From an uncultured archaeon (GTDB lineage Archaea; Nanobdellota; Nanobdellia; Pacearchaeales; GW2011-AR1), in the NCBI GenBank assembly GCA_903828655.1, contig CAIKMX010000037.1, positions 17,173 to 81,172 of the forward strand: a stretch of 64,000 nt of DNA, written 5' to 3'. Of the stretch, positions 1-17,980 are shown piece by piece. The position numbers were made by a program, and so were the translations under genes. Position 1 is the first letter of the stretch. Each line of letters starts with the position of its first letter. The notes under the pieces were generated by a model, which was not told the origin of the DNA, searched no databases, and saw only the letters and a list, made by a program, of their open reading frames with translations.

Positions 1-229
1 AGGTAATTCTGTGAGACGGCTGTGTTACGGAGATGCTAACGGTGACGGTGCAGTTGATTTGCAGGACTTCGGAGCATTGAAGGATAACTTTGGGGTTTAT
101 GGTGGGGCAACTTGGGCGATGGGGGACTTTGTTAGTGACGGTAATGTTGATTTGCAAGACTTTGGAAAACTGAAGGATAATTTTGGAAAGACTCCTGAAA
201 GTGGATGTGAGATGACTACTGTAGGTTGA
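1..229 (+). CDS. C-terminal fragment of secreted protein with two dockerin-like Ca-binding repeats (gene begins upstream of window)
   Basis: Frame is open from base 2. It contains GDANGDGAVDLQDFGALKDNFG and SDGNVDLQDFGKLKDNFG, the two-repeat DxNxDGxVDxxD architecture of type-I dockerins. The DNA is nearly identical to 4330-4500. Confidence 0.6.
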   Translation, partial: GNSVRRLCYGDANGDGAVDLQDFGALKDNFGVYGGATWAMGDFVSDGNVDLQDFGKLKDNFGKTPESGCEMTTVG

Positions 230-319
230 GTTGATTTTGATTCATAAATAAAAAATAGTGTTATTATATAATAGTAACAATTACAAAAGATTTAAATATC
301 ATGTCGTTTTGGTCTTTTC

Positions 320-1480
320 ATGAGAATTTCAAGGTATATAGCGGGATTGCTTGTTTCAGCAGCTTCTATGGTAGGTTTTGCTGGAACAAATTCTCCAGAT
401 GAGAAACCAGCTACACGAACGGCGGCTTCTAAGCCCGCAGAATCTAAATTAATAAACGTCATTGATTCATGTTATTCTTCTAGGATAATCGCCGATGGAG
501 TAACTGATTTAGGGGATATCGCGATTGGTCATGATAATAGGGTTTATTATGTATCGGGGAATCTTGAAAAGGCTGCTGTTTATGAACTCGAAAATGGGAA
601 ACAGAAACAAGTTTTTAAGATAACTGCTCCGACTGAGAAGAGTACTGGAATTTTATGGACACGTTCGAGAATTGGCGTTAGTTCTGGAAAAAAAGGAAGA
701 GAACTTACAGTCTTGCAAATAGGTAGAGATACCTTAGATGAAGATAAAGAAAAGTGGACTTATTTTCATGGGGACAGAATAAATTTAGATAGTGGGGAGA
801 CAACAAGAGGGAAAGAATTTGGGATAAGAAAGGAGATGGAGGGTTTTAAGACGACGGATGTTAATCCCGAAAATGGTGATTTTTATTTCAGCGCCGCTTC
901 AAGTATATTTAGGCTAAAGCCTGCTACTCTTGATTTGGAATCTTTGAGATATGTAGAGCCTCCAGAAGGGATAGTTGCGGGACCTTTTTTTGGATTCTGT
1001 TTTGGAGCGAATAATCGTTCTTATGAAATATGGAATAGATGTGCAGTGGGGGCTTTGGGAAATGGCGAGACCAAAAAAATGGAGTTTAAACCGTCCATAA
1101 CTGATTCATTTAAGGTTTCTGATGATGATCCTATTCGCTATTTTTTTAGTTTGGATAATGCAAGAGTTGATACTTCTGGAGATAAACTAATTGCTGTAGG
1201 TTATATGAGCTATACTGGAGGCAAAAACATTGGTGGTGCAGGAAGGGAAAGATGGGGAACTTATGTTCTGGGAATTGATTTGAAAACAGGGAGTGTTTCT
1301 AAAATTGCTCGCTCTGGCGGAGGAGCAGATTTTCTAGCTGGAGATAAATCTTACAAGCCAGAGTTTGATTATCATATTCGGTCTTCTGCTGTTGGGAGTG
1401 ACGGAAAGATATATCTTGGTATGAGCACAGGCGGTTTTTCAAAAAGAGAGGGAAAGATTGTTTGTCTTGAGAAGAAGTGA
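320..1480 (+). CDS. secreted hypothetical protein (N-terminal signal peptide, possibly a beta-propeller)
   Basis: 386-aa ORF with a hydrophobic N-terminus (IAGLLVSAASMVGFAG) and repeated YxxG / GSDGKIY motifs. No recognisable catalytic motif. Confidence 0.5.
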   Translation: MRISRYIAGLLVSAASMVGFAGTNSPDEKPATRTAASKPAESKLINVIDSCYSSRIIADGVTDLGDIAIGHDNRVYYVSGNLEKAAVYELENGKQKQVFKITAPTEKSTGILWTRSRIGVSSGKKGRELTVLQIGRDTLDEDKEKWTYFHGDRINLDSGETTRGKEFGIRKEMEGFKTTDVNPENGDFYFSAASSIFRLKPATLDLESLRYVEPPEGIVAGPFFGFCFGANNRSYEIWNRCAVGALGNGETKKMEFKPSITDSFKVSDDDPIRYFFSLDNARVDTSGDKLIAVGYMSYTGGKNIGGAGRERWGTYVLGIDLKTGSVSKIARSGGGADFLAGDKSYKPEFDYHIRSSAVGSDGKIYLGMSTGGFSKREGKIVCLEKK

Positions 1481-3750
1481 TTTTATTTGACACTTTTAAA
1501 AAAAAGATTTATAAACTTCGATTCTTTGTGTTTGTTATGAAAAAGGGCGTGGTGTTTAGAATTTTCTTTGTAGTATTATTTTTATTTTCGTTTATAGGCT
1601 TTGTAGTATTTTGTGATGTTCCTTTTGTGAAGGCGGCGGGGGAGCCGGTTTATAATTCTATCGAGAGTTGTCGGGACTTGGGAGTTAATGATGGTGGTTC
1701 TTCCGAGCAGACACGAAAGTACTATTCTATTAGCAAGGAGATTGTCATGAATCGACCAGACTGCTTGGTTATTTCAGGGTCTTATATTACTATTAAGTTT
1801 CTTCGTGGTGGGAAGATTACTGGAATTACTGGAAATAGACACGTAGCCATACTAATCAGTAGAACAAATAATGCCCCGGTTCCAGAGGTGGTGATTGAAG
1901 GAGATGGTTCTGACGATGTAAATATCCAGAATACAGATATGGGAATCTCTGTCCAGCCTAGCTATCTTGCTCCCGTTAAGATATCCGGGGTTAACATAGT
2001 GGGTTGTGGCGTTGGGATTGAGGTGGCAGGTACCACCATGAATTATTATGATGGGGACACTATAACCCTTGAAAAAAACAAGATTAGTGGATTTACAACT
2101 AGTGGAAGTGGTACTGCTAAAGGCATTTCTATTACTGCGGCTTGTAATCTTCAGATTGAAGGGAATGCTATTGATAGTTCTGAGGGATATGGAATTTATA
2201 TTGAAGATTTGAGTAGTGATAGATTGAATACTAAACTTTTCACGAGAAACGTTATTAAAAATCAGATTAAGAATGTTCGGGTAGGAGTTTATCTTAAGAA
2301 TGCAGTTGATGTTAATGTTGGAGCGGAGGGGGCGAAGAATATTATTACCTCTACGAAGGATTGGGGAGTAAGTATGGCAGGACAGTGTAAACGAAATAAA
2401 ATTCTTTCAAATATAATTACTAATGAGAATTTTGAGGAAAAACAACTTGGTGGAGGGATAGATACTGCTGGAGAGGACAATTCTATAAAGAGTAATGAGA
2501 TTACACTCAAAACTTCAGGAAGTGCAGCTAGATATTCTTATGGTATGACCGTCTATGGAAAGAATAATGTCTTCTTTGATAATAAATTAGTGTTTAATCC
2601 TGAAGAGGATAAAGTATCTGTCTGGGCGGTGATATTTCGAACTTCAGAGAGTACAAAATTTTATCATAATAAGATTGTTGGGGCTTACCGGGGTGTAGGG
2701 GTTGGTGTTGTTGAGACTAGTCGTGATAGACAGGATAAGCTGACGGGAGTTACTGTGATAAGGGATAATTATCTAAAAACTATATCAAAGTATGACCTTG
2801 GGATAGAAGAGTATATCTATAGGAGTCAGGGTCGTGACGCTAATCTTTTATTGAATCCTGCAGAGCGTTTTGGAGCGGTTACGGAGAAAAATCCGGAGCA
2901 TAATAGTGTTCTTGGAAGCGTGTTTTCTTCAGGAAACTATTATGGAGGATTAAATGGTTATTCAGAATCTGATGGTTGCAATAGTGATGCTAAATACGGT
3001 TTTTGTGGAAGTCCTTGTTTGCTTAGTACTGATTCTAACAGGGATGAAATTTATCCTTTAGGAGCTTGTTCAAAGTCTAATGAAAATGTTTGCAATAAGG
3101 GTCTTAATACTCTTAAAAATGATAAGGGTTATTGTGACTATTTTCCATTGGCCAAGGAAAAGGTAGTTGCAGATTGTAGAGTTCTTTTTCCTAGTTGTGC
3201 TATTAATGATAATGAGGGATTTAAGATTAATATTCCTGCTAGTAGCATTCCAGATAGTTACTCTGGAATAGATTTGAGTTCGTTTAAAGATGTGATTAGT
3301 GCGTGCAATCTTTATGAGGGGGGATGCGTTCTTCAGGCTCCTAGTGATAATAGCTGTCCTGATTTTGCATGGGCTTTTGCTGATGAGTCAGAAAATCCTG
3401 TTGGAGCGATTAGTACAGACATACCTCCTGTTGGATCTTCCGAAGTGCCTGTGCGTTTAACTGTTTTAACTAATGAAATTTCGGGGTATATTTTGGATGT
3501 TGAGTTTACTGCGACTGATTGTTCTGGTGGAACGGGTGAAATGAGTGTTTGGTTACATGATGTGATCAATGGCCGTCTTACAAAGGTGGATTTGCTCGGA
3601 AATCCTGTTGTTGCGTACGGTCCTGGCATGGAAATTGATGCGACTCCTCTGCAAGTAATTGCAAGTGCCGCGTCGGGAGATGCTGGGGGTCCAGGATTCT
3701 CAGATCCTACGAGTCTACTAAATATTCAATCATTTCCTCCTACTGTTTAA
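1477..3750 (+). CDS. secreted right-handed parallel beta-helix repeat protein with a Cys-rich C-terminal region
   Basis: 757-aa ORF. The likely true start is ATG 1537 (MKKGVVFRIFFVVLF signal). Repeated GxxIxGxxxGIxI beta-helix-like segments (NIVGCGVGIEVAG, GNAIDSSEGYGIYIED) are followed by a C-terminal third with many Cys. Confidence 0.55.
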   Translation: MILFDTFKKKIYKLRFFVFVMKKGVVFRIFFVVLFLFSFIGFVVFCDVPFVKAAGEPVYNSIESCRDLGVNDGGSSEQTRKYYSISKEIVMNRPDCLVISGSYITIKFLRGGKITGITGNRHVAILISRTNNAPVPEVVIEGDGSDDVNIQNTDMGISVQPSYLAPVKISGVNIVGCGVGIEVAGTTMNYYDGDTITLEKNKISGFTTSGSGTAKGISITAACNLQIEGNAIDSSEGYGIYIEDLSSDRLNTKLFTRNVIKNQIKNVRVGVYLKNAVDVNVGAEGAKNIITSTKDWGVSMAGQCKRNKILSNIITNENFEEKQLGGGIDTAGEDNSIKSNEITLKTSGSAARYSYGMTVYGKNNVFFDNKLVFNPEEDKVSVWAVIFRTSESTKFYHNKIVGAYRGVGVGVVETSRDRQDKLTGVTVIRDNYLKTISKYDLGIEEYIYRSQGRDANLLLNPAERFGAVTEKNPEHNSVLGSVFSSGNYYGGLNGYSESDGCNSDAKYGFCGSPCLLSTDSNRDEIYPLGACSKSNENVCNKGLNTLKNDKGYCDYFPLAKEKVVADCRVLFPSCAINDNEGFKINIPASSIPDSYSGIDLSSFKDVISACNLYEGGCVLQAPSDNSCPDFAWAFADESENPVGAISTDIPPVGSSEVPVRLTVLTNEISGYILDVEFTATDCSGGTGEMSVWLHDVINGRLTKVDLLGNPVVAYGPGMEIDATPLQVIASAASGDAGGPGFSDPTSLLNIQSFPPTV

Positions 3751-3754
3751 TAAA

Positions 3755-4534
3755 ATGGAAATTAAGAATAATAAAATTGCAAGGGAAAAGAAGGGCATGA
3801 GTTACTTATGGGTAGCTTTGACTTGTGTGATTGTTTTGGCTGTCGTTGCTTTCTTTGTGTTCAATAGGGGAGCGATTAGTGGAAAGGCTGTTGGGCAAGG
3901 TATTATTGGGAGTCATATTTCTGTCGAGAGGGAGATTACCTATCTCTATGATGACGAGGACAATATAGGCAAGAAAATTTTTGCTGTTGATTTGCATGTT
4001 GTTGTTGATCAGCCCGGAATTGCTGTTGCTGCAGGAGATATTCTTTCTGAAGTAGATAACGTTGTTTATTGGACTGACCCTTCAGAGGCTGTTGATTCTA
4101 ACGGACAAGCTTATGATCTTGCCATGTATGATAAAGTAAATCATAAGGTAGTGTATAAGGATGAAAGTGGGCCTATTAGTACGACTTTCTCTTATCTTGT
4201 TTCTGCTAACGAAGGAGATAGTACTTTCGGAGATTTTTATTTTATTGATAATGATATGACTATGACTTCGGAGTCAATAACTGGAGATACCATATTTACT
4301 GATAATGCTGCTCCGGTTCATCGTCTGCGAGGGGATGCGAATGATGATGGAGTTGTTGATTTACAAGACTTCGGAGCATTGAAGGATAATTTTGGGGTTT
4401 ATGGTGGGGCAACTTGGGCGATGGGAGATTTTACCGGCGATGGTAATGTTGATTTACAAGACTTCGGAGCATTGAAGGATTGCTTTGCTGCTATTCTTAA
4501 TGATCCAGATCGTCCAGCGTGTATAATTGTCTAA
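3755..4534 (+). CDS. membrane-anchored protein with C-terminal tandem dockerin-like repeats
   Basis: Probable start at 3797 (MSYLWVALTCVIVLAVVAFFVF TM helix). The C-terminus has GDANDDGVVDLQDFGALKDNFG and GDGNVDLQDFGALKDCF. The DNA is about 90% identical to the window start (1-229). Confidence 0.6.
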   Translation: MEIKNNKIAREKKGMSYLWVALTCVIVLAVVAFFVFNRGAISGKAVGQGIIGSHISVEREITYLYDDEDNIGKKIFAVDLHVVVDQPGIAVAAGDILSEVDNVVYWTDPSEAVDSNGQAYDLAMYDKVNHKVVYKDESGPISTTFSYLVSANEGDSTFGDFYFIDNDMTMTSESITGDTIFTDNAAPVHRLRGDANDDGVVDLQDFGALKDNFGVYGGATWAMGDFTGDGNVDLQDFGALKDCFAAILNDPDRPACIIV

Positions 4535-6219: not shown

Positions 6220-6287
6220 AAAGTTTGGTATCTCTTGTGGAGGAATCGCATTGGCAACTTTTTTTAGACTTGGCTAATTTTATTTTA

Positions 6288-7607
6288 TTAATTAAAGTCC
6301 TCAAAACCTAACTTATCATTGAATTCGTGTGAGATGTTTTCGAGAAGTTTTTCTTTGATTTTTTCTTTGTCTTTTGCCCATGTTGAATGTCCGAGTATCC
6401 ATGATAATTTGATGAAGGCTGTTTCTGATGTCATGTCTTTTAATGGGATGATGCCTGTATCTAAAAGTTCTCTGCCTGCTGAATAAACATTAAGATTTAA
6501 TTCACCATAGATTGTTTGCGCGGTTCCAACGATTGTTATTCCTTTTTGAATTGTTTTCTTTATTGTTGGAAGCCAGTTTTCTTTTGATTCTTTGCTTGGG
6601 ACGTGGCCTAATCCTGTTAATTCTAGAACGATTCCTTTGTAGCCTTCTTTTGCGTAAAAGTCTAAGATGTTTGGATTTTGTCCGGGATAGATTTGAACAA
6701 TTGCAACTTTTTCGTTGTATTTTGCGTCTAATTTGACGTTTACTTCTTTATTTCTTGCATTGAAATCTTTTAGGATTGTTAATTTATCTTTTGTTATCTC
6801 TGCTATCGGTGTGTCGTTTATGACCTTGAATGTGTCTCTCCTTGAAGAATGCATCTTTCTGGTTTTTGTTCCGGGCATTGCCAAGCATGCAGTGTCGTTA
6901 AGATCTTTATGTCCTACTATTGCGACTTCTGCAATATCTGAAACTGCGTAACGGGCTGCACAAATTAAATTTAATGCTGCATCTGTGCTACCTCTGTCAA
7001 TTGAACGTTGCGAGTACGTTAGCGCTATAGGTTTGTTTAGATCTCGTAAATAAAATGAGAGGGCTGCTGCCGTGTAATGTAAAAAGTCTGTTCCGTGTGT
7101 GATTATTATACCCTCTATTTGTTTTTCTTTGTCTTTTTCATTTAGAAGTTTTTCACAAACTTCTGCAATTTTTTTCCAGTCAAGGAAAGACATATTCTCG
7201 CTCCATTTCATAAATGGTTTTTCTATTTTTACTATGTTACAAATATCTTTTATTTCAGGAGCAATTTTAAGAATTTCTTCTGCGTCTGTGCTTATAACTC
7301 CGCCAGTTTTTGGGTCGAGACGTGAGGAGATTGTGCCTCCGGTGATGATTAGAGCGATATTTGGGAGTGTCTTTTTGTGTTCATGTTTAATTTGAGTTTT
7401 TTCTTTTTGTTTAGCTTTTTCTATAATCTTTGCATCAAGAATCTCATTTTCTCTTATTCCTATGTTGTATCCGGAAGTTAATTTTATTAGAATAACCTCT
7501 GGATCGTATGATTCTAGAATTGTGCATTGCCATTCTTTTTCACGTGTTTTAAGATGAACTTTATCTCCAACACCGAGTTCTTTGATTTTTAGGGCCATGT
7601 TTTTCAA
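6288..7607 (-). CDS. gatD: Glu-tRNA(Gln) amidotransferase subunit D (asparaginase-like)
   Basis: 439 aa. Asparaginase signature IALIITGGTISS and THGTDFLHYTAAAL. The length and the N-terminal extra domain are typical of archaeal GatD. Confidence 0.8.
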   Translation of the reverse strand: MKNMALKIKELGVGDKVHLKTREKEWQCTILESYDPEVILIKLTSGYNIGIRENEILDAKIIEKAKQKEKTQIKHEHKKTLPNIALIITGGTISSRLDPKTGGVISTDAEEILKIAPEIKDICNIVKIEKPFMKWSENMSFLDWKKIAEVCEKLLNEKDKEKQIEGIIITHGTDFLHYTAAALSFYLRDLNKPIALTYSQRSIDRGSTDAALNLICAARYAVSDIAEVAIVGHKDLNDTACLAMPGTKTRKMHSSRRDTFKVINDTPIAEITKDKLTILKDFNARNKEVNVKLDAKYNEKVAIVQIYPGQNPNILDFYAKEGYKGIVLELTGLGHVPSKESKENWLPTIKKTIQKGITIVGTAQTIYGELNLNVYSAGRELLDTGIIPLKDMTSETAFIKLSWILGHSTWAKDKEKIKEKLLENISHEFNDKLGFEDFN

Positions 7608-7718
7608 AGCTTAAAGAAGTATAAAAAGGTTATTGAATGAACAATAAGAGTCCTAATGTGAGCACGCTCTAGGAGTAAAATAAAAAGGTTTTTAAAGGGA
7701 TTATTTATAGGTAGTATA

Positions 7719-9038
7719 TTGGCCCTAGGGAAAGAGAGTTCTGATAAAATTAAGATGGCAAAAACATCATACAGAAGCGTTGGAGCAGATTCGGATAGAT
7801 ACTGGGTAGCGGAGTCTAAGACAAAATTACAAGGTGATTTGAGATCTGCTTATTTTAATTCAAAACAAAATCTTGGCGGAAATGCCGAATTGCTTAGAGA
7901 GGTAACGGAGGTTTTAGGAAATAGGGGATATAGTCATGTAAAGAGATTGAGGATTGCTGAAGAGCTAATGGGATCAAGTTATTTTTCTCTTTCTCAGGCT
8001 GAAAGAGAGTATCTTGTTGGAGTTCTTAGTATTTCTGGACATTATGTTTCTGAAAATAAAAGTTCTGGTAAAGAAATTAAGGATTCTGTATATGCAGGTC
8101 AAAAGGCAAGAAGTTTAGAGATGAAAGTAACCGTGGTTTCTAGAATGAGAAAGGTTGAAGAGGTTGAACCTGCAAGAGAAATTGAATCTGCAAAGCCTGT
8201 TGAAACATATAGACCTAATGTAAAAAAGTTGGGATTGTTTGGGAAGATTGCCGCCGCGGCTGCTATTATTGGTAGTGTTGCCGTAGGAGTTTTTTCATAT
8301 TTTGGAAGAGATTCTTCTTTGAGTAATGTTGGAAGTAGTTCTACTTCTAATGCTTCTCCTTCAACTCTTGTTGATGCTACCCCTCTTTCTAGAGGAAGCG
8401 CTTTAAATCTTTTTGATAATGAATATAAAACAAATAATCGATTAGAAGGACGTTTAGGTAATGGAAGCTCTGATGTTGGAGACAGACATGTTGCTTTTGG
8501 AGTTGATTATGCTGGTGCTTCTGAGCCTGAAGGAAATTCTAGGATAGAGGGCGCTAAATGTTCTGATCGTGTGCGTTTTTCTCAAAGCGTTGAGAGTAGG
8601 GCCAATGTTAGCTCTGAATCTGAAGGGTTTGCTGTTTCTGATTTAACCTCTCCTGCTTCTCCAGAATTGACTAGTTTACCTGTAACCGCTTCTGGCGATG
8701 ACTCTCTTAGTGTGGTTGGAAGAACTCTTACAATTTCTTTGGGGGATTTAGTTTCTTATCCAGAAAAGGCATTTCTCCCTCTTTGTGGAAAAGATGGAAC
8801 CCATATTACTATTGGCTCTAAATCAAAGAGACAGGTATTCTATAATGTTAGCAATGATAATTCTTTAGACGCTTCGGATAGAGTCTGGAGAAAATCATTT
8901 GGGGGAGGGTTAGATAGTTCTAACATTGAGAAAGTTGTTATCTACGATATGGTCAGTGGAAAGAGCAGAGAGTTTAGGGCTGAAGAATTTGCTAAAAAGT
9001 ATAGTCGTACTGATCCTTGCAAGATAACTTTGGATTGA
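7719..9038 (+). CDS. single-pass membrane protein with a Ser-rich extracellular region
   Basis: 439 aa with a central TM helix (LGLFGKIAAAAAIIGSVAVGVFSYFG) and a S/T-rich low-complexity segment. No catalytic motif. Confidence 0.45.
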   Translation: MALGKESSDKIKMAKTSYRSVGADSDRYWVAESKTKLQGDLRSAYFNSKQNLGGNAELLREVTEVLGNRGYSHVKRLRIAEELMGSSYFSLSQAEREYLVGVLSISGHYVSENKSSGKEIKDSVYAGQKARSLEMKVTVVSRMRKVEEVEPAREIESAKPVETYRPNVKKLGLFGKIAAAAAIIGSVAVGVFSYFGRDSSLSNVGSSSTSNASPSTLVDATPLSRGSALNLFDNEYKTNNRLEGRLGNGSSDVGDRHVAFGVDYAGASEPEGNSRIEGAKCSDRVRFSQSVESRANVSSESEGFAVSDLTSPASPELTSLPVTASGDDSLSVVGRTLTISLGDLVSYPEKAFLPLCGKDGTHITIGSKSKRQVFYNVSNDNSLDASDRVWRKSFGGGLDSSNIEKVVIYDMVSGKSREFRAEEFAKKYSRTDPCKITLD

Positions 9039-9092
9039 TATTTATTTTTGCCATAAATAACTTTTTATACCGGTGTTCTTTGTTTAGATTAT

Positions 9093-10556
9093 ATGGCTAA
9101 AGCAAAACAAATCCAGATTGGTTCCATTGAAAAAGAGAAAAAATCTTTAGGTGAGAGGGAGTATCCTATAAAGATTGGACTTGAGATACATGGATATTTA
9201 GATACTGAAGAGAAATTGTTTTGTATGTGCAGGGCTAAATGTCCTGAGAATATTGATTGGCGTGAGGAAAAAGACAATACAAGAATTTGTCCTATATGCA
9301 CTGGCACTCCGGGAAGTAAACCTATGCTTCCTAATAAAAAAGCTGTTGATAACTTGATTAAGATTGCTTTGGTTATGGGATGTAATGTCAATTGTGGAAA
9401 AGAATTGGTTTGGCAAAGAAAGCATTATGATTGGGCGGATTTGCCTAAAGGATATCAGAATACTATTTCTGGAGCACACGCAGTTCATCCGGCTTCTAAT
9501 GGAAAGTTTCATGGAATTAGAATAACTGAATGTCATCTTGAGGAAGATCCTGCACAATGGAATCCTGAAACTGGTAAGATAAATTATAATAGAAGCGGCT
9601 CGCCATTGATTGAAATTGTTACTGAACCTGATTTTTATGATTCTGAGATGGTTGTTGAGTGGCTTAAAAATTTAATTAATTCTTTAAGCTACATAAAAGC
9701 GATAAAGAAAAATGCAGGAATTAAAGTTGATGTTAATGTTTCTACTCATGGAGAGAGAGTTGAGATAAAGAATATTAATTCTATTGAAAAGATAAGAAAG
9801 GCTATAGAATATGAAATTGTTAGGCAACTTGAAAATCATGAAAAGGGAATTGTACAAAAGCGTGAAACGCTTGCTTTTGATGAAAGACTTGGAAAGACAA
9901 TTAAAATGAGAGATAAAGAGGGGCAGGCAGATTATCGATTTATTCCAGACCCCGATTTGCCAGTTATTGTTTTGAATGAGAAGGAAGTTAAGAAAGTTGA
10001 AAAGGAACTTCCAGAAATGCCTGAAGTTAAACTTGATAAACTTTCTAAGAAATATAAAATTGACTCGGACAATGCTGAAATTTTATCTAGGAATTTAGAG
10101 TTGGTTGAGTTTTTTGAGGAGCTTTCTAACGAGGGGGTAGATGTTAAGAAGAATCTTTCTTGGATTACTGTTGAATTGCTTCGTGTATTAAACTATAACA
10201 AAAAAACTCTTGAAGATGATGATGTTGACATAAAACCAAAACATCTTGCTGAGTTGATTAAGCTTGTTGTTAGTGGAAAGATAACTCCTCTTAAAGCAAA
10301 ACAGGTAATGAATGATTTTGTTCCAAAATCTTTTTCAATAAAAGAGAAGGGAGATGTCGTTAGTATCGCTAAAGATGCAATTGAAAATATCTGTAAGCAA
10401 GTTATTAATGATAATTTGCATGTTGTTGATGAGTTTAAGTCTGGAAAAGAACAGGCTTTAAATTGGTTAATTGGGCAGGTTATGAGGTTAAGTGAGAGAA
10501 GAGCCGATTATAAAACCGCGAAGGATTGCTTGATTAAGTTGTTGAAGTTAACATAA
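9093..10556 (+). CDS. gatB: GatB/GatE-family aminoacyl-tRNA amidotransferase catalytic subunit
   Basis: 487 aa. N-terminus IGLEIHGYLDTEEKLFCMC...ICPICTGTPGSKPMLPN is the Cys cluster and GTPG motif of the GatB/E family. C-terminal YqeY-like tail. The length fits GatB better than the roughly 620-aa GatE, so its partner relationship to gatD is uncertain. Confidence 0.7.
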   Translation: MAKAKQIQIGSIEKEKKSLGEREYPIKIGLEIHGYLDTEEKLFCMCRAKCPENIDWREEKDNTRICPICTGTPGSKPMLPNKKAVDNLIKIALVMGCNVNCGKELVWQRKHYDWADLPKGYQNTISGAHAVHPASNGKFHGIRITECHLEEDPAQWNPETGKINYNRSGSPLIEIVTEPDFYDSEMVVEWLKNLINSLSYIKAIKKNAGIKVDVNVSTHGERVEIKNINSIEKIRKAIEYEIVRQLENHEKGIVQKRETLAFDERLGKTIKMRDKEGQADYRFIPDPDLPVIVLNEKEVKKVEKELPEMPEVKLDKLSKKYKIDSDNAEILSRNLELVEFFEELSNEGVDVKKNLSWITVELLRVLNYNKKTLEDDDVDIKPKHLAELIKLVVSGKITPLKAKQVMNDFVPKSFSIKEKGDVVSIAKDAIENICKQVINDNLHVVDEFKSGKEQALNWLIGQVMRLSERRADYKTAKDCLIKLLKLT

Positions 10557-10592
10557 GTAACATGTGTGGAGGAATCGTTTTGTTAGGAGCAT

Positions 10593-10680
10593 TCTTTATG
10601 TTTATATTGCCAAAATTTAAATAAACAAAAGTTGCCAAGTATGTCAACGGATTGGGAGATACCAAAAATTGCGCGAATAA
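10593..10680 (+). repeat. R1 modular intergenic repeat, copy a (module A)
   Basis: Has ttgccaagtatgtcaacggattgggagataccaaaaa. It is preceded at 10561-10590 by module B, tgtggaggaatcgttttgttaggagc. Confidence 0.6.
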
Positions 10681-10710
10681 ATTTATATACTCTAGTTTGT
10701 ATTTAGTTCC

Positions 10711-11055
10711 ATGACAAGGGGTGCGCATCATATACATAGACATGTTAAGAAGAGGGTGAGTGAGAGACATGTTGAAGAGAAAATCGAGGATTCTGCTTTT
10801 AGAAGAGGAATTGACAAACTTGTTTTGATTATCGCTTTTTTAGCTCCTCTTGTTGAACTGCCTCAGTTGATTGAAATTTATGCACTTAAGGCTGCTGGAA
10901 GTGTTTCTTTACTAACTTGGAGTATGTTTGTTGTATTTGGAGTTCCTTGGTTGATTTATGGGATTATACATAAGGAGAAGCCGGTGATAATCTTGTATTC
11001 ATTATGGATAATAATTGATTCTGCGATTGTTGTTGGAATATTACTGTATGGGTGA
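10711..11055 (+). CDS. small PQ-loop (SemiSWEET-like) membrane protein
   Basis: 114 aa. LAPLVELPQLIEIYALK carries the PQ motif at the start of TM1, followed by two more helices. The N-terminal 45 aa is basic and non-membrane. Confidence 0.45.
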   Translation: MTRGAHHIHRHVKKRVSERHVEEKIEDSAFRRGIDKLVLIIAFLAPLVELPQLIEIYALKAAGSVSLLTWSMFVVFGVPWLIYGIIHKEKPVIILYSLWIIIDSAIVVGILLYG

Positions 11056-11091
11056 TAACTGGTCTTGTTGCTGGTGCATAAAATTAAAAAT

Positions 11092-11215
11092 GGACAATGT
11101 TGTCAACGGATTTGGATGTTACTGAGAAGCGAGCCCGGAGGGCGAGCGTTGATTGTCGCTCGAAACTGGACTCCGTCACATTTTCTCGCTCTCTCGTAAT
11201 TTTTGTGAATGGATA
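11092..11215 (+). repeat. R1 modular intergenic repeat, copy b
   Basis: Has gttgtcaacggatttggatgttac, aagcgagcccggagggcgagcg, tgtcgctcg...ctcgctctctcgtaatttttgtgaatgg. It aligns with the copies at 19923 and 22510. Confidence 0.65.
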
Positions 11216-11272
11216 ATATTTTTACATGATCGGCAGTTATTTATTACAAATGTTTTTGGCAGAGAAACAAAA

Positions 11273-11626
11273 TTATCTCTTGAGAACTCTTGCTTTCATT
11301 GTTCTTGGTTTTAGAAGATTCTTGAGATCTTCGAAAACTTGTCTTGCTTTGTCGTCGTTATTTCCTGTTGCATTGCAGGTGAAGATATCTAATTGTAGTG
11401 AATTCTTTTTTTCTGGCCAGGTATGAATTGAGACGTGAGATTCTGAAATAATAAAAACTCCCGTGAAACCAGCTTTGGGAAATTTGTAAAAACATCTTCC
11501 AACAATATGAAGCCCAGATCTTTTTATTATGTGTTCTGCTTTTCTTTCGAATAGTTTCTCGTCGAGAAGCAGACGTTTGTCTAAACATTCATAAAAGTTA
11601 GCTATAAAATGTATCCCCTCCATCAA
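11273..11626 (-). CDS. speH: S-adenosylmethionine decarboxylase proenzyme, SpeH type (pyruvoyl-dependent)
   Basis: 117 aa. ESHVSIHTWPE is the classic class-1b AdoMetDC self-processing motif. The size matches archaeal/Bacillus SpeH. Confidence 0.85.
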   Translation of the reverse strand: MMEGIHFIANFYECLDKRLLLDEKLFERKAEHIIKRSGLHIVGRCFYKFPKAGFTGVFIISESHVSIHTWPEKKNSLQLDIFTCNATGNNDDKARQVFEDLKNLLKPRTMKARVLKR

Positions 11627-11701
11627 TTATATATAAAAAATCTATTTATAAATTTATTTCTCAATAGAAAGAGTTTTAATCTTGCGTTATTTAGGTATTT
11701 T

Positions 11702-12388
11702 ATGATAGATTTCAACAAACTTATAGACAAATATCTTGAGAGAGAATTTAGACCAAAACAGATTGGGAGGTATTACCCCTCGGAAATTGGAGGGTGCTTA
11801 AGGAAAACTTGGTATTCATATAAGGTACCTAAAGCGACGGATACTAAACTCGCTAGAGTATTTGAGGCTGGAAATATGCTTCATGAGTTTATTGCTGAAG
11901 TGATAAAGAGTGAAAAGAATAAGGATGTTGAATTGCTTCAAAGTGAAATGCCTATCCAGATAAAAACTAAAGATTTTGTCATCTCGGGGAGGATTGACAA
12001 TCTTGTTTTGTTAAAGGTTTGTGATATTAATGGAAAATTTAAGGATGATGACTGTAAACAGGTTTTATTAGAAGTTAAATCTACAAAGTTTTTGCCTGAA
12101 TTTTGCAAAAAGGAACATGAAATGCAATTGCAGCTTTATATGAGGGCTACAGGTGTTGAGAATGGAATTGTTTTATATGTTCAGAAGGATAATATTGAGA
12201 CTAAATGGTTTGATGTTAAGCTGAATGTTGTTGAGGGAGAGAAGATTATCGAGAGGTTTGAAAAAATACACGAATCGCTTGTTTGTGGAAAGATGCCTAT
12301 TGCTGAAGCTAAGATGAATAAAGAGGATAAATGGATGTGTGATTATTGTCCTTGGAAGGAAGAATGCGATAAGGAAGGTAGTTTTTGA
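11702..12388 (+). CDS. Cas4-like PD-(D/E)xK nuclease with a four-Cys cluster (stand-alone)
   Basis: An N-terminal Cys (EIGGCLRK), the D...EVKST (ExK) nuclease core and a C-terminal CDYCPWKEEC give the Cas4/AddB-type C...Cx2Cx5C Fe-S arrangement. No cas genes nearby. The ORF track starts at 11609, but 11702 avoids overlap with speH. Confidence 0.6.
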   Translation: MIDFNKLIDKYLEREFRPKQIGRYYPSEIGGCLRKTWYSYKVPKATDTKLARVFEAGNMLHEFIAEVIKSEKNKDVELLQSEMPIQIKTKDFVISGRIDNLVLLKVCDINGKFKDDDCKQVLLEVKSTKFLPEFCKKEHEMQLQLYMRATGVENGIVLYVQKDNIETKWFDVKLNVVEGEKIIERFEKIHESLVCGKMPIAEAKMNKEDKWMCDYCPWKEECDKEGSF

Positions 12389-12423
12389 GTAAGATTTAAA
12401 TAAACTGGAATGGTGTCTAGTCC

Positions 12424-13620
12424 ATGGGAAGAGGGTTTACATTTTTTGTTTTTTTGGCTTTAGCTGTTTCTCTTTTAGTTTTAGTTGGATTAAGGTTTAC
12501 GGGCTTTGTTCCTCTCAATACTCAAGACACTAGTCCTTGTACTGTTGATTTTAATGAAGATGGAGCTATTGATTTGCAAGATTTTGGAGTATTGAAGGAT
12601 AATTTTGGAGCTACGGATATCTCTGGAAACTATTCTTTTTGGAGAAGAGGTGATGCAAATCTTGATGGGGTAATTGATATTCAGGATTTTGGGTTGGTTA
12701 AGGGTAACTTTGGACAGAATGCTTCGGGGTGTCCGAATTTCTGTTCTAAGGTTATTAATTGTTCTGGAGAGATATTAGATGGTTGTTGTCCTGGAAAATG
12801 TTTGGGTATTGAAGACCTTGACTGTGTGCAAGATGGGGTTTTAATGAATTCTTTATGGACCGCGAACAGCGATGTTTTAGTGGATGGTGCATGGGAGAGT
12901 TCTTCGTGTTCTGAAGCGCTTAGTGTTGTTGATTCTGGAGAGGGGAGTGGAGAGTATGCTCTTCGGGCGGATTCTTCTAATAAAAATTATTGTTGTGTTC
13001 AGAATTCTTATGGATATCATTGCTATAATCTTTATGTGGTGAATAAATTTCCTAAACTTATGAGGTCCTGGGGGGGAGAAATGTACATTAACTTAAAAAA
13101 TGTGGATTTTTCTTATAGTGATGTTAATGGGCTTGCGGTGCTGGGGGCGTATAATACTCTTTCTAGTGGGAATAGAGATTTTACAATTCTGGCTCGTGCA
13201 AAAACTGGTGGAAGGGGGAATCTTTGTTTTAGTTATTTCTGGCCTTGGATGGGTTCTGCTGCAATGTGTGGCCCAGATCAAAGTGTTGATATCTCAAAGG
13301 CTATGTGGGAATCTTGGATAAAGGTTGAGTGGTGGTTTAGTAATAATTCAAATCTTTATGTTAAAGTTGGAAATACTAGTTGGAGTGATGACTGGCGTTT
13401 TGTTCCAGTTCAGAATCCTGACTCCACGCCTAATTACGTGGAGGTTTGTGATGCTTCGGCTGGTTGTGCTAGGTCCGGTTATTTTTGTGATAATGGGATA
13501 TGTAAGACGGATTTTGATAATGTGAGAGTTGGGTGGGTTAGTTCTTATCTTAATGGTAATGTTATGATTAAAAACGTAAAACTTTATGACGGTAATTTTA
13601 TTCCAGATAATTTACCTTAA
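12424..13620 (+). CDS. secreted Cys-rich protein with N-terminal tandem dockerin-like repeats
   Basis: A signal/TM segment (FVFLALAVSLLVLVGL) is followed by VDFNEDGAIDLQDFGVLKDNFG and GDANLDGVIDIQDFGLVKGNFG. Confidence 0.6.
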   Translation: MGRGFTFFVFLALAVSLLVLVGLRFTGFVPLNTQDTSPCTVDFNEDGAIDLQDFGVLKDNFGATDISGNYSFWRRGDANLDGVIDIQDFGLVKGNFGQNASGCPNFCSKVINCSGEILDGCCPGKCLGIEDLDCVQDGVLMNSLWTANSDVLVDGAWESSSCSEALSVVDSGEGSGEYALRADSSNKNYCCVQNSYGYHCYNLYVVNKFPKLMRSWGGEMYINLKNVDFSYSDVNGLAVLGAYNTLSSGNRDFTILARAKTGGRGNLCFSYFWPWMGSAAMCGPDQSVDISKAMWESWIKVEWWFSNNSNLYVKVGNTSWSDDWRFVPVQNPDSTPNYVEVCDASAGCARSGYFCDNGICKTDFDNVRVGWVSSYLNGNVMIKNVKLYDGNFIPDNLP

Positions 13621-13681
13621 ACTTGGGAGATATATTTAGCTCTCTTGAATAAAAAAGAATTAAGTTAAAATTAAAATTGGT

Positions 13682-13900
13682 TTATTTGTGTCTGCATGGG
13701 CATAAACTGCCTAAAGCAATTAATGCTGCAGCAATTGTTATTGCTATTGGAGCCCAAGATGGAGAAGGATTCCACCAAACTAATACTACGATTAGTATTG
13801 GTAATAACCAACTACCACAAGAACACATGGGGCATCTTTTCGCGGAACATGATTCGTCTTTCATATTCTCGATTTTTTGGCCCCTTTTTCTTTTTGCCAT
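13682..13900 (-). CDS. small hypothetical membrane protein with CxxC / CPC motifs
   Basis: 72 aa (MAKRKRGQKIENMKDESCSAKRCPMCSCGSWLLPILIVVLVWW...). A TATA-like gatataaatac sits about 30 nt upstream on the minus strand. Alternative plus-strand ORFs overlap it. Confidence 0.35.
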   Translation of the reverse strand: MAKRKRGQKIENMKDESCSAKRCPMCSCGSWLLPILIVVLVWWNPSPSWAPIAITIAAALIALGSLCPCRHK

Positions 13901-14057
13901 GGATTATTATGGAATATGGAGTATTTATATCTTATCTTAAGGGAACCAAGGTTTTGACTTGCAAGCTCTCTTGAGCACCATGACAGTTCAACCCTCCTGT
14001 TACAAAACCTTTTAAACGAACTTTATTTTGTAGGTTCAAAGGATGTAAAATATTAAA

Positions 14058-14696: not shown

Positions 14697-14710
14697 AATC
14701 ATTGCGGGAT

Positions 14711-15412
14711 TTATTTTTTATAATTAGTCAACTTTTTCTCTTGCCAATATTGATAGAGTGGGCCTATGAAGGCTCCGGCAAAAAAGCCCCATATAAGATC
14801 TTCTATTGGTGCTGTTAAAATAGTTATACCTGATAAGTTTTCCATGAACCAGTAAGTCTTTACCCACCCAGGGGTTATTAGTTGTGGAACTATGAACCAG
14901 ACCAATCCGATTATAGCTAATAATATGCCTGAAAGTATAGAGTCTACTATGAGATCTTTTCTTTTGTACCAGATATAAATTATAGGTATTGCAAATGCGA
15001 TTAGTGATGAATAGAATGTATGAATCTTAAATAAGTAAACGCATACTAAAAAGATTACTGCTAATAAAATCAGGGGTATTGCAATTTTAATTTTTTTAAG
15101 TTCTGTCTCTTTCTTTTTCTTCACTTTAAGATTTATTCTTTTATTAAAAATGATTAGATAGATTACTGCTGATATGCCTGCTGTGACAAAACCAAAGAGA
15201 AAATCTTCTATTCCTACTGAAGTGTTTGTTATTGTGAGCGGATGCCACCAGTCTATTAGGTATGTAGGTTCTACGAGGACCCCGATAACTCCAAAGACTA
15301 GTGAAACTATAAGCATCTCTTTTCTTATATCTTTCCTTAGATAGTATAAAACGAACCATACTAATAGCAGGGCTAAGTCTGCGATCATATAGCTGTATGT
15401 GTAGTTCACCAT
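14711..15412 (-). CDS. polytopic membrane protein of unknown function
   Basis: About 7 hydrophobic helices. The ORF track starts at 15451, but that would overlap the tRNA, so the internal Met at 15412 is preferred. Confidence 0.45.
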   Translation of the reverse strand: MVNYTYSYMIADLALLLVWFVLYYLRKDIRKEMLIVSLVFGVIGVLVEPTYLIDWWHPLTITNTSVGIEDFLFGFVTAGISAVIYLIIFNKRINLKVKKKKETELKKIKIAIPLILLAVIFLVCVYLFKIHTFYSSLIAFAIPIIYIWYKRKDLIVDSILSGILLAIIGLVWFIVPQLITPGWVKTYWFMENLSGITILTAPIEDLIWGFFAGAFIGPLYQYWQEKKLTNYKK

Positions 15413-15421
15413 CTTTTTAAG

Positions 15422-15493
15422 CGGGCTCACGAGGAATTGAACCTCGATCAACGGGGCCGAAACCCGCTATTCTATCCATTAAACTATAAGCCC
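15422..15493 (-). tRNA. tRNA-Arg (anticodon UCG)
   Basis: Hand-folded cloverleaf of 72 nt. Acceptor stem GGGCUUA/UGAGCCC (one G-U pair). D-arm GUUU-AAUGGAUA-GAAU. Anticodon stem GCGGG/CCCGU, loop UUUCGGC. Variable loop 4 nt. T-arm CGAGG-UUCAAUU-CCUCG. Discriminator G. CCA is not encoded. Confidence 0.8.
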
Positions 15494-15667
15494 AAGCTTT
15501 GCGAGGACTTATAGGAGGATGGAGAGGTTTTTAATCTCTCCTTAAACTATAAGCCCTTATGGGAACCAAGGTTTCCCTTAAGTTCACCCTTCCTATTAAG
15601 AGAGTGATGCCTCTTTAAAAAGATTTGGCGAGACGTTTTTAATTCCCGTAGATTTTAATTTCACTAA

Positions 15668-15680
15668 TTTTATAAATGAG
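15668..15680 (+). promoter_or_regulatory. TATA-box-like element upstream of the protease gene
   Basis: ttttataaatgag lies about 25 nt upstream of the ATG at 15698. Confidence 0.3.
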
Positions 15681-15697
15681 GCTTTCTTTGACATTGG

Positions 15698-16546
15698 ATG
15701 CAAAAAAATCATGTGATAACAATTTCTGTAAGTATTATGGTTGTTTTTTTAGTTGTACAAGCGAGCATGATATATTTTGTGATGTATCAAACTAATAGGA
15801 CAATGAATTCTGTGAACCAGTCGGTTTCTGATTTAACTGATAAAATAGATTCTAATAAAAGAGAGACTCAAGCAAACTTTAATAGTTTAGCGGTGATTAT
15901 TTCCAATATATCGGCTGTACAGTCTAGTTTGCAGAATGAGGTTGCGACAGTTAAGGCCAATTCTAATTCGGATTTTTCTGATATAATCTCTAGGGAGATT
16001 GAAGGGGTTGTTACAATAAAGACGGATCTAGCACAGGGAACGGGATTTTTTATTAGTTCTGATGGATACATTGTTACTAATTATCATGTGATTGAGGGCG
16101 CAAGAGCTGCGGGGGCATTTACTCATGATGGGACTAATCATCAAGTCACTCTTGTGGGTTATGATGCTAATATAGATGTTGCTCTGCTCAAAACCTCGGG
16201 GAGTTTTACTAGGTTGAGTTTTGGAGACTCGGATAGTGTTAAGGTTGGCCAAAAGGTTCTTGCAATAGGAAATCCGTTAGGATTAAGTTTTACGGCTACG
16301 CAAGGAATAATATCGGCTATAGACCGTCCCGGGATAAATGACTTGCCTTATTATTTTCAGACGGATGTTCCATTGAATCCTGGAAATTCTGGGGGACCCT
16401 TAATTGATACTAGTGGTAATGTCGTCGGAATAAATAATTTCAAGGCCCAGGGGGCGGATAGTATCGGGTTTGCTTTGGAAAGCAATAGGGCAAAAGATGC
16501 TGTAAATGGTATTGCTATGGCTGATTTGAATATGACCTTGGTGTAA
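15698..16546 (+). CDS. membrane-anchored trypsin-like serine protease (S1C/HtrA-like catalytic domain, no PDZ)
   Basis: An N-terminal TM helix and coiled coil are followed by GTGFFISSDGYIVTNYHV (His), DVALLK (Asp) and GNSGGPLID (Ser). Confidence 0.8.
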   Translation: MQKNHVITISVSIMVVFLVVQASMIYFVMYQTNRTMNSVNQSVSDLTDKIDSNKRETQANFNSLAVIISNISAVQSSLQNEVATVKANSNSDFSDIISREIEGVVTIKTDLAQGTGFFISSDGYIVTNYHVIEGARAAGAFTHDGTNHQVTLVGYDANIDVALLKTSGSFTRLSFGDSDSVKVGQKVLAIGNPLGLSFTATQGIISAIDRPGINDLPYYFQTDVPLNPGNSGGPLIDTSGNVVGINNFKAQGADSIGFALESNRAKDAVNGIAMADLNMTLV

Positions 16547-16801
16547 ATGCATTTTTTTATTTCTCGGCTATAATAATATTTTGGTAACATCTGTGGAGGA
16601 ATCATCGGGGTATGCGCATTTTTAGGTTGTTAAGCATTTTACATATAAACTTTGTTAAATAAACCTGTGAAGAATGAGAAGATACTAAAAGTAGGGTTTG
16701 GAGGTGAGGAGTATTAGTTATTTGCATGTTTTACAAGATTATTATTATTATTATTTTAAAAACATAGAAATATTTATAAAGGATATAGTGTTAACATATT
16801 T

Positions 16802-17980
16802 ATGAAAAAGTGGTTGGTGGCTGTTCTTATCGTCGTTGCTTTGGTGATTGTTGTTTTCGTTGGATTTAAAATAACTGGCAATGTTCCTCTTTATGTAGGA
16901 GATAAGGGTCCTTGTGCTGTTGATTTTAATGAAGATGGAATTGTGGATATACAAGACTTTGGAATGTTGAGGGATAATTTTGGAATTGAGTCTGGAGCGA
17001 ATTTTTCCCAGGGAGATGCTAATGAAGATGGGATGATTGATATACAAGACTTTGGATTGTTGAAGGATAATTTTGGTCAGATTGCAGATGGTTGTACTGT
17101 TCCCCCTATTTATGTTATTGATTCTTGTACTGCAGATATAAATCATGATGGGATTGTGAATTCTGCGGATATGTATCTTGTAGGTGATAATTTGGATAGA
17201 AATGATTGTGCCTTGGTTAACAGAAGATGTAATGGGACGGATGTAAATCAAGATGGCGGAGTTGACATACAAGATTTGGGGATGGTTAAGGATCATCTTA
17301 ATGAAACTGCTATTAATTGTCCTGATTATGTGCCTCCTTGTGTAGGTGGTGATTGCAGTTTTCAATTCGAGGCGGGAAGTGATACTTATTTGATGCTGAA
17401 TGATTTTCCTTTTAAGGATGCTGTTTATGATTTAAAGATACTATACGGAGATCGGTACGGAAATTCTACGTTTTATGGAGTAGGAAGCGATAGTAGTAAT
17501 CGATTAGCGGTTCCAGTTTCTTCTTATTTGAAGAATCTTTCATTTAATGCAGGCACTGATAGTTATTTTGTGGCTAGCAATATTAATACCTCTGAGTCTT
17601 ACCTAATGAAAGCTACAAATTTCAAGATTGCTAGTGGTACTAATAAGACTACGATACAATATAGAAAGGCTGATGGTTGGGCTACATTGAAAGAAGATGC
17701 TGCTAAAGATGATACTGCAACAATTGGTAACGTTGGTTTAACTATTGGAAAGGTAGATTATCAACAAAGAACGGTAGTAATCAAACCAGATGCCGATGTA
17801 AGTTTTACTAGAATTTATGCTAGAGATGGGAGATATATGGATTTACCAACCACAGACAGATTTCCACGGGCAGTATATAATTTTGTCGTTTATAACCCTG
17901 CTGGGACTATTAATCGGAATGTAACTGCATATTGGGATCGTTCTCTTCCTACGCCTGTTGTTGCACTTCTTTATAATTAA
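16802..17980 (+). CDS. secreted protein with two tandem dockerin-like modules (four Ca-binding repeats)
   Basis: After the signal, VDFNEDGIVDIQDFGMLRDNFG, GDANEDGMIDIQDFGLLKDNFG, DINHDGIVNSADMYLVGDNL and DVNQDGGVDIQDLGMVKDHL. The C-terminal beta-rich domain is unknown. Confidence 0.6.
   Translation: MKKWLVAVLIVVALVIVVFVGFKITGNVPLYVGDKGPCAVDFNEDGIVDIQDFGMLRDNFGIESGANFSQGDANEDGMIDIQDFGLLKDNFGQIADGCTVPPIYVIDSCTADINHDGIVNSADMYLVGDNLDRNDCALVNRRCNGTDVNQDGGVDIQDLGMVKDHLNETAINCPDYVPPCVGGDCSFQFEAGSDTYLMLNDFPFKDAVYDLKILYGDRYGNSTFYGVGSDSSNRLAVPVSSYLKNLSFNAGTDSYFVASNINTSESYLMKATNFKIASGTNKTTIQYRKADGWATLKEDAAKDDTATIGNVGLTIGKVDYQQRTVVIKPDADVSFTRIYARDGRYMDLPTTDRFPRAVYNFVVYNPAGTINRNVTAYWDRSLPTPVVALLYN

Follow-up and report, generated by a model that had tools for sequence, protein, structure and literature searches.

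Dockerins occur outside cellulosomes as well as within them, and archaea are among their hosts. Peer et al. 2009 compiled a catalogue of the non-cellulosomal modules of both kinds, dockerins and cohesins, from Archaea as well as Bacteria, and the long record of archaeal examples also includes Bayer et al. 1999 and Haimovitz et al. 2008 (all as cited in PMC9012536). According to references given in that paper, the modules of Archaeoglobus bind specifically, and experiments have demonstrated cohesin binding by archaeal dockerins. Anaerobic methanotrophic (ANME) archaea encode many dockerin and cohesin proteins, which are proposed to organize the extracellular space (PMC9012536). Dockerins in ultra-small Omnitrophota have been reported as putative adhesins (PMC10066038), as have cohesin and dockerin proteins in bacteria of the candidate phyla radiation (CPR) (bioRxiv 10.1101/2021.08.21.457207). 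In our literature search, no paper dealt specifically with dockerins in DPANN archaea. The present work concerns four genes in a 64,000-nucleotide stretch of DNA from an uncultured archaeon (GenBank assembly GCA_903828655.1, contig CAIKMX010000037.1, positions 17,173 to 81,172 of the forward strand), referred to here as the window. The four genes, all located within its first 18 kb, are predicted to encode exported or membrane-anchored proteins with non-cellulosomal type-I dockerins, and we lean toward the view that these act as calcium-dependent docking modules. An earlier reading of the same DNA, here called the original prediction, considered such modules notable in a putative DPANN-type archaeon, which was overstated given the archaeal non-cellulosomal dockerins and cohesins long on record in the works cited in PMC9012536.

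Dockerin-like modules of the window

Five modules, comprising ten F-hand segments, are encoded by four plus-strand open reading frames (ORFs). One module each is present in the proteins designated here A (positions 2 to 229), D (3755 to 4534), and E (12424 to 13620), and two are present in protein F (16802 to 17980). The original prediction placed the paired repeats in these same ORFs and saw the two modules of F, and both points hold, but it counted five secreted proteins where there are four proteins carrying five modules. The segments are about 22 residues long, occur in pairs, and have the form D-x-N-x-D-G-x-(V/I)-D-(L/I)-Q-D-F-G-x-L-K-D-N-F-G. Each of the five pairs displays the tandem dockerin arrangement, in which a helix-forming stretch comes after a 12-residue calcium-binding loop, with linkers of 8 to 13 residues between paired hands and a total module length of about 60 amino acids. 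Nine of the ten loops carry D1, N/D/T3, D5, D/N9, and D12, and both hands have L/I-Q at loop positions 10 and 11 and K-D at positions 17 and 18. The module of A spans positions 23 to 208, with loops starting at 32 and 125, and is bracketed by cysteines (C-Y-G-D ... S-G-C). That of D spans 4325 to 4531 (loops starting at 4334 and 4427), and that of E spans 12538 to 12732 (loops starting at 12547 and 12652). In F, the first module (F1) lies at 16913 to 17095, with loops starting at 16922 and 17015, and the second (F2) at 17126 to 17320, with loops starting at 17135 and 17240. F2 is more divergent and contains four cysteines; the sequence of its first hand, D-I-N-H-D-G-I-V-N-S-A-D, is of the kind found in cellulosomal dockerins.

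A six-frame scan of the window with the loop pattern D-x-[NDS]-x-[DNS]-G-x-[VILM]-[DNST]-x-x-D returned eight canonical loops, all inside the four ORFs, and no match elsewhere in the 64 kb. The second hands of A and D deviate from the pattern at loop position 3 alone, where A has Val and D has Thr. A hidden Markov model (HMM) built from the five modules was run without filters against every stop-to-stop piece of the six frames. It recovered exactly those five modules, with domain E-values of 1e-28 to 1e-33, and nothing else in the window better than E = 2.7. The confinement of ten copies to four ORFs is real and nonrandom, far beyond what chance would give.

Dockerin_1 (PF00404) was the top Pfam family in all four proteins, scoring 45.7 bits in F, where the match covers four stretches, 23.0 bits in E, 21.6 bits in A (E = 2.5e-4), and 18.6 bits in D. 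The Pfam cut-off of 22.9 bits was thus passed clearly by F and just by E, with A and D marginal. The scores of the GC-type dockerin model (NCBIfam NF041540) in these proteins, 11.8 to 16.1 bits, lay below its cut-off of 29. When a profile of the modules was compared with all Protein Data Bank (PDB) sequences, the 11 best matches were all solved dockerins (6.8e-9 to 2.4e-4). Cellulosomal type-I dockerins gave the best of these, at 6.8e-9 to 1.4e-5: Bacteroides cellulosolvens Cel48 (2Y3N_B, 6.8e-9), Clostridium thermocellum CelS (2MTE/1DAQ, 1.4e-7), and Clostridium cellulolyticum Cel5A (2VN6/2VN5). The Clostridium perfringens NagH dockerin (2JNK) and 2B59 were further dockerin matches.

The repeats could in principle be calcium loops of a generic EF-hand or thrombospondin type, or an artifact of composition, and EF-hand families do appear as weaker Pfam matches, just as the EF-hand proteins SCaMC-1 and troponin C appear lower in the PDB list. 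We regard this reading, already disfavored, as very improbable. The families PF00036, PF13202, PF13405, and PF13499 reached at most 17.6 bits in the four proteins, all below their cut-offs of 25 to 30 bits, and Dockerin_1 always ranked first. The first generic EF-hand protein in the PDB list stands at 3.3e-4, about five orders of magnitude weaker than the best dockerin. The 22-residue pairing, the linker length, and the total length are those of dockerins, and the ten copies in four ORFs have no counterpart elsewhere in the six frames. The module profile was also run with HMMER over 1.84 billion cluster representatives and matched 21,887 of them at E ≤ 0.001, of which 962 reached E ≤ 1e-10. 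Among the top 150 matches, the 100 relatives of at most 900 amino acids were compared with PF00404, and 97 of them belong to it at E ≤ 0.001. By every sequence criterion tested, then, the modules are dockerin-like and belong to the Dockerin_1 family; they score as more than generic calcium loops, and the dockerin half of the original prediction, a type-I layout, is borne out. Since the family has more than 20,000 cluster representatives and dockerins are already known outside cellulosomes, this leaves the established picture unchanged.

The resemblance to cellulosomal dockerins extends to the duplicated 22-residue F-hands, the loop D-x-N-x-D-G-x-V-(D/N)-x-x-D, and the length of about 60 amino acids; the modules of A and D are moreover C-terminal, as in cellulosomal enzymes. 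The differences lie in the recognition positions 10 and 11, where the window modules have L/I-Q instead of S-T, in a cysteine bracket around the hands, and in the N-terminal placement of the modules of E and F beside a membrane helix. The host is also an archaeon, and the window contains no glycoside hydrolase or other carbohydrate-active enzyme (CAZyme) as cargo and no scaffoldin or cohesin that we could find.

In E and F the first module begins about 15 residues past the N-terminal hydrophobic helix, so that the split between C-terminal repeats in two proteins and N-terminal ones in two others is as originally described. Protein E (398 amino acids) consists of the helix, the sequence F-T-G-F-V-P-L, a Cys-bracketed dockerin, a Cys-rich linker, and a cargo region of about 260 amino acids. 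Protein F (392 amino acids) has the helix, I-T-G-N-V-P-L, the two dockerin modules, and a beta-rich cargo of about 210 amino acids. Both start with a hydrophobic helix of 19 to 23 residues followed by [IF]-T-G-[NF]-V-P-L, a cysteine about ten residues on, and then the first loop. Their first 100 or so residues show 61% identity and a 137-nt stretch of the DNA 76%, whereas the cargos are unrelated. This contrast points to a common N-terminal cassette of anchor plus dockerin. A search for homologues of F returned F itself and one match confined to the dockerin. That the proteins are secreted, as was claimed, agrees with their N-terminal hydrophobic segments of 19 to 23 residues, but such segments are equally compatible with uncleaved membrane anchors.

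A motif of the form [ILF]-[TS]-G-x-[AV] stands directly after the N-terminal hydrophobic helix in five plus-strand ORFs, which start at 12424, 16802, 3755, 53280, and 61691 and read FTGFVP, ITGNVP, ISGKAV, LTGKVV, and LTGNAV, respectively; it is also present in the relatives P0007 and P0070, described below. Its role, perhaps specific to the lineage, may lie in signal-peptide processing or in anchoring. The last two of these ORFs encode proteins of 732 amino acids (53280 to 55478, plus strand) and 540 amino acids (61691 to 63313, plus strand) that belong to no family but are 51 to 56% identical over their N-terminal 110 residues or so, a second reused cassette like that of E and F.

Relatives, possible partners, and function

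The exact window proteins were found only in NCBI and ENA, on the source contig and on a few short ENA contigs of less than 2 kb. Searched against one genome per GTDB species, the module profile matched 71 loci at 29 to 57% identity. All were bacterial and nearly all were from Planctomycetota (Tepidisphaerales, Phycisphaerales, and Pirellulales), often with many copies, up to dozens, per genome. No archaeal locus appeared among these species representatives, which do not include the source genome. The A/D alignment matched 48 loci in JGI metagenomes, essentially in the dockerin only, on DNA of 53 to 70% GC. Most of these proteins end in a PEP-CTERM tail, as do several matches from the protein search, and no protein in the scan was homologous to the cargo of A and D.

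The closest sequence relatives of the window modules are accordingly Planctomycetota proteins that combine a dockerin with PEP-CTERM, at 35 to 58% identity. They have the same helix, D-L-Q-D-F-G-x-L-K-x-N-F-G, and the same linker, G-A-T-W-x-x-G-D-F, and they likewise come in many copies per genome with no obvious cohesin partner. They differ from the window proteins in being bacterial, in their GC content of 53 to 70%, in the PEP-CTERM tail that follows the dockerin, and in the rarity of flanking cysteines (3 of 47 proteins). A minority of the relatives are instead Lys-rich and free of PEP-CTERM. Cysteines flank the F-hands in 24 of 44 of these, which makes the bracket (C-x-x-D1 ... G-C) a recurrent feature of a subgroup and not one unique to the window. 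Among the Lys-rich relatives, P0007 and P0070 have the same order of N-terminal helix, T-G motif, cysteine, and dockerin.

The non-cellulosomal modules of Archaeoglobus fulgidus and of ANME-1 and ANME-2 archaea resemble those of the window in their archaeal host, in their non-cellulose context, and in being carried by surface or periplasmic-type proteins with no large scaffoldin. In those archaea, however, cohesin proteins occur in the same genomes and binding of the pair has been verified, whereas the 64 kb studied here contain none. The ANME dockerins also accompany ABC substrate-binding proteins and S-layer domains, and the cargo of the window proteins belongs to no recognizable family.

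A parallel in architecture comes from a compact cohesin-dockerin locus of a metagenome, L077 (JGI Ga0182030_10000809, positions 6401 to 13014), and its relative L078, both at 44% GC. L077 encodes two enzyme-like proteins in which a signal peptide is followed by an N-terminal dockerin and then by further domains. Beside them are two cohesin-like proteins, one with Big_7 and a dockerin and the other with a C-terminal membrane anchor. The order of hydrophobic segment, dockerin, and cargo in L077 and L078 is that of E and F, and the linker G-A-T-W-A-M-G-D-F is the same. The cargos of L077 are recognizable (fn3 and enzyme-like domains), unlike those of E and F, and nothing cohesin-like is detectable beside E or F. 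The locus nevertheless demonstrates that a layout of the E/F type does occur alongside cohesins elsewhere, and an N-terminal dockerin behind a signal peptide, next to cohesin-like membrane proteins, lends support to a docking function.

The mechanism that we favor would run as follows. After export, each loop would bind one Ca2+ and the module would fold, its two near-identical helices forming a quasi-symmetric face. That face would dock noncovalently on a beta-sandwich receptor, a cohesin or cohesin-like domain, carried either by the envelope of the archaeon itself or by a partner cell, and docking would display the beta-rich cargo domains. The cysteine three positions before the first loop and the one just after the second helix may form a disulfide. 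In known dockerins, the residues at −1 to −3 and at the C terminus form a stabilizing clasp (PMC3821032). Together with the Cys-flanked hands of 24 of 44 Lys-rich relatives, this suggests that the disulfide would be a covalent version of the N-to-C clasp. The family itself would have expanded in two ways, duplication of a whole gene in the case of A and D and reuse of an N-terminal cassette in that of E and F, with repeat-driven homogenization and deletion inside D.

The cohesin searches covered the 64-kb window, and no cohesin-bearing partner encoded alongside the dockerins was found there. Pfam Cohesin matched no ORF of 120 amino acids or more, including two giant ones of 2826 and 2046 amino acids. 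HMMs built from the cohesin-like domains of L077 and L078 and from cohesin 7 of C. thermocellum CipA (its sequence matched 1AOH at 299 bits) gave only noise against the six frames. PDB searches (phmmer and profile) with the C-terminal region of the neighboring protein C found nothing, and those with the A/D alignment gave matches confined to the dockerin part. The cargo domains compared by hhalign with a cohesin alignment gave probabilities of 0.1 to 0.3%, a comparison with no power, as the positive control (CipA cohesin 7 against L077-type cohesins) also failed. The cohesin-dockerin-like assembly system of the original prediction is therefore not supported in its cohesin half by any ORF of the window. 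Absence of a Pfam match is nonetheless weak evidence, because the cohesin-like domain of L077 itself scores only 17.6 bits against the cut-off of 24.1.

Besides these empty cohesin searches, several observations weigh against a docking role. Cohesin is not among the 25 families that most often co-occur with the close relatives. The second loop of A has Val at a ligand position, A and D taken individually fall just under the Dockerin_1 cut-off, and export is predicted from N-terminal hydrophobic segments that could equally be uncleaved membrane anchors. Both AlphaFold2 predictions were of low confidence, with a predicted local distance difference test (pLDDT) score of 36 for F alone and 42 for D aligned with P0056, the full-length form of A; neither is usable for the fold, the disulfide, or the binding face. 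The secondary structure of the D model, seven to eight strands and then two helices, is compatible with a beta-sandwich plus a dockerin, and Foldseek with that model gave weak generic beta-sandwich matches (YEATS and ApaG), none at E ≤ 0.001 and none to a cohesin; at this model confidence neither result is informative. Many genomes carry dockerins without cohesins.

In an alternative reading, the modules are true dockerin folds that work with no cohesin. They would be calcium-dependent stabilizers or adhesins, with glycans, S-layer components, or a host surface as direct ligands, or would simply make extracellular proteins more rigid. A role of this kind is suspected for many orphan dockerins of Planctomycetota and other bacteria. 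The absence of a detected cohesin from the 64 kb and from the commonest co-occurring families would fit it, as would the nature of the nearest relatives, which are bacterial, nearly all from Planctomycetota in GTDB with dozens of copies per genome, and in metagenomes mostly dockerin plus PEP-CTERM proteins. Non-cellulosomal dockerins have also been proposed as adhesins (PMC10066038). We consider this alternative possible but on balance doubtful. Every dockerin with a known partner binds a cohesin, archaeal ones included, according to the references in PMC9012536; divergent cohesins score under the Pfam cut-off, as in L077; and 64 kb is a limited view of the genome.

A further idea, which we think quite improbable, is that the dockerins serve a docking system whose receptor is no recognizable cohesin and would belong to a class new for dockerins. 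The beta-rich domain of about 140 amino acids in A and D is one candidate, and it would let these two proteins chain head to tail on the membrane; others are a domain of the giant surface proteins encoded at 41299 to 49779 and 55542 to 61682 or a receptor on a host cell. If this were so, the system might have a role in the attachment of an episymbiotic archaeon, and the N-terminal dockerins of E and F, close to the membrane, would bring partners to it instead of acting as cargo tags.

Should the modules dock surface proteins, as we are inclined to believe, they would belong to the equipment with which a small uncultured archaeon displays proteins at its surface or attaches itself, and they would offer handles for finding its binding partners. 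Of modest interest in their own right are the membrane-proximal N-terminal placement in E and F, the cysteine bracket that suggests a disulfide clasp, the closeness to Planctomycetota dockerins that precede PEP-CTERM tails, and the lack of a detectable cohesin nearby.

Paralogy of A and D and the repeat within D

Protein A is cut by the edge of the window, which holds its last 75 amino acids in the translation of positions 2 to 229. Its full length is available from P0056, a protein of 252 amino acids, found by the profile search, whose last 75 residues are identical to those in the window (Dockerin_1, 18.0 bits). Read from P0056, A starts with a hydrophobic helix, continues with about 135 amino acids of beta-rich cargo, and ends with the dockerin. 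Protein D (259 amino acids) has the same order, with a beta-rich region in A and D of about 135 to 145 amino acids that in D is assigned from the low-confidence model. P0056 and D align over their whole length with 46% identity over 248 amino acids (E = 4e-53), and by this alignment A and D are full-length paralogues. They end in ...ESGCEMTTVG and ...DRPACIIV, respectively. Neither has a PEP-CTERM tail: we found no PEP motif, no terminal transmembrane helix with a basic tail, and no match to PF07589.

The two modules had been described as about 90% identical in DNA. An ungapped comparison of positions 20 to 180 with 4322 to 4482 gives 127 of 161 positions, or 79%; the best 157 nt are 83% identical, and only a 63-nt core (62 to 124) reaches 95%. 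The longest identical run is 35 nt, and the DNA flanking the modules is 32 to 35% identical. Within 56 codons of the modules there are 14 synonymous and 10 nonsynonymous codon differences. At the protein level, the modules are 82% identical and the cargos about 35%. Because A and D are paralogous over their full length, this pattern is most simply explained by whole-gene duplication followed by stronger constraint on the module than on the cargo, and not by conversion of the module alone.

Recent gene conversion between the two genes, which the original prediction offered together with duplication, would also account for a module that is 82% identical in protein and 83% in DNA beside a cargo at about 35%, and for the 95% core with its perfect 35-nt run. 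Homogenization of a conversion type is, moreover, clearly at work within D, as detailed below. We nevertheless judge conversion between A and D unlikely. The 14 synonymous differences imply that any exchange was not recent. The 35-nt run falls within the linker V-Y-G-G-A-T-W-A-M-G-D-F, the core of which, G-A-T-W-x-x-G-D-F, is kept in distant relatives, bacterial ones included, so that purifying selection explains much of the similarity. Taking 0.8^35 across some 130 start positions, we estimate the chance of a run of this length against a background of about 80% identity at roughly 0.05. The synonymous comparison covers the modules; the DNA of the cargo of A lies outside the window. The mode of duplication in the earlier claim needs correcting, to duplication of the whole gene, and recent conversion between the genes is weakly supported.

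Within D, a perfect 33-nt direct repeat is present, with one copy in F-hand 1 (4355 to 4387) and the other in F-hand 2 (4448 to 4480), 93 nt downstream, both on the plus strand. The identity covers all synonymous sites of eleven codons. In A, the corresponding stretch has two differences in hand 1 and five in hand 2. Homogenization inside D is clear. A public variant of D, P0005 (228 amino acids, on an 855-nt ENA contig), lacks exactly the 31 amino acids (93 nt, one repeat period) from one copy to the other, a deletion that would leave a single hybrid F-hand. It may be a genuine allele in the population, or the 33-nt repeat may have collapsed during assembly.

Neighboring genes and other features of the window

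Two genes lie between the paralogues A and D. Protein B (386 amino acids, 320 to 1480, plus strand) has a signal-like N-terminal segment and no Pfam or NCBIfam match above noise. Protein C (1477 to 3750, plus strand) is a right-handed beta-helix protein, as had been predicted, with matches to Beta_helix (38.4 bits) and NosD (34.2 bits) that both exceed their cut-offs; its true start probably lies inside the ORF, with MKKGVV... near position 1537. Toward its C terminus, C has a Cys-containing region of about 280 amino acids with no homologue in Pfam, the PDB, or the protein databases. The spacing of the four genes (229/320, 1480/1477, and 3750/3755) suggests one transcription unit. The cargos of D, E, and F, like this C-terminal region of C, matched no Pfam family at E ≤ 10 except noise, and the cargo regions have no PDB relative and no homologue among the sequences collected for this analysis. 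No CAZyme family was found in the cargos of D, E, and F, and dockerins on catalytic, carbohydrate-active cargo were therefore not seen.

The archaeal origin of the DNA is supported by genes for GatD and GatE, the archaeal Glu-tRNA(Gln) amidotransferase, and by a prolyl-tRNA synthetase (ProRS) that falls in a cluster of more than 90% identity with an NCBI protein labeled "MAG: ... [archaeon]." The window also encodes deoxyhypusine synthase and archaeal-type aminoacyl-tRNA synthetases. Its GC content is 31 to 40%, and this low value, the giant ORFs, and the many exported proteins that belong to no family make a DPANN placement plausible.

The two giant plus-strand ORFs (41299 to 49779, 2826 amino acids; 55542 to 61682, 2046 amino acids) have signal-like N termini and one region in common, with 31% identity over 183 amino acids. 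No Pfam domain was above cut-off in either, and only MopE-type metal-binding motifs appeared below threshold. Directly upstream of the first giant ORF is a gene for a protein with an SLT lytic transglycosylase domain (40199 to 41095, minus strand; 94 bits), which is unusual for an archaeon. Adjacent genes at 25431 to 27529 (minus strand) encode a DisA-type diadenylate cyclase (DAC and DisA-linker) and a DHH/DHHA1 phosphoesterase, a pair that looks like synthesis and degradation of c-di-AMP.

A 12-mer, TGTGGAGGAATC, is present on the plus strand only, in four exact copies and one copy with a single mismatch, at 6236, 10565, 16592, 32777, and 38938, against 0.27 matches expected by chance in the window. 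It lies inside a conserved core of about 30 nt, GGTAaCatTTGTGGAGGAATCGT..TGgtA, which is followed by a T-run, and GTTGTTAAGCATT is present in three copies. The copies are 9 to 190 nt downstream of the stop of a plus-strand gene, two of them at convergent gene pairs. The element matched no Rfam family, and its copies showed neither a common RNA fold nor a consistent start codon that would mark a short ORF, although there is one frame in which every copy reads ..C-G-G-(I/V)-hydrophobic.... The element may be associated with terminators or have another regulatory role.

Genes for two class-Ib (Trp/Tyr-type) aminoacyl-tRNA synthetases, presumably the tyrosyl- and tryptophanyl-tRNA synthetases (TyrRS and TrpRS), are located 4 kb apart on the plus strand, at 33929 to 34894 and 39047 to 40186. 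The latter has a TTG start and a copy of the 12-mer about 100 nt upstream. The GC skew of the plus strand is strongly positive, at 0.15 to 0.35 in most 2-kb bins, and falls to about zero or below only at 24 to 34 kb and 50 to 52 kb. These drops occur where genes are on the minus strand, and the skew thus follows the coding strand.

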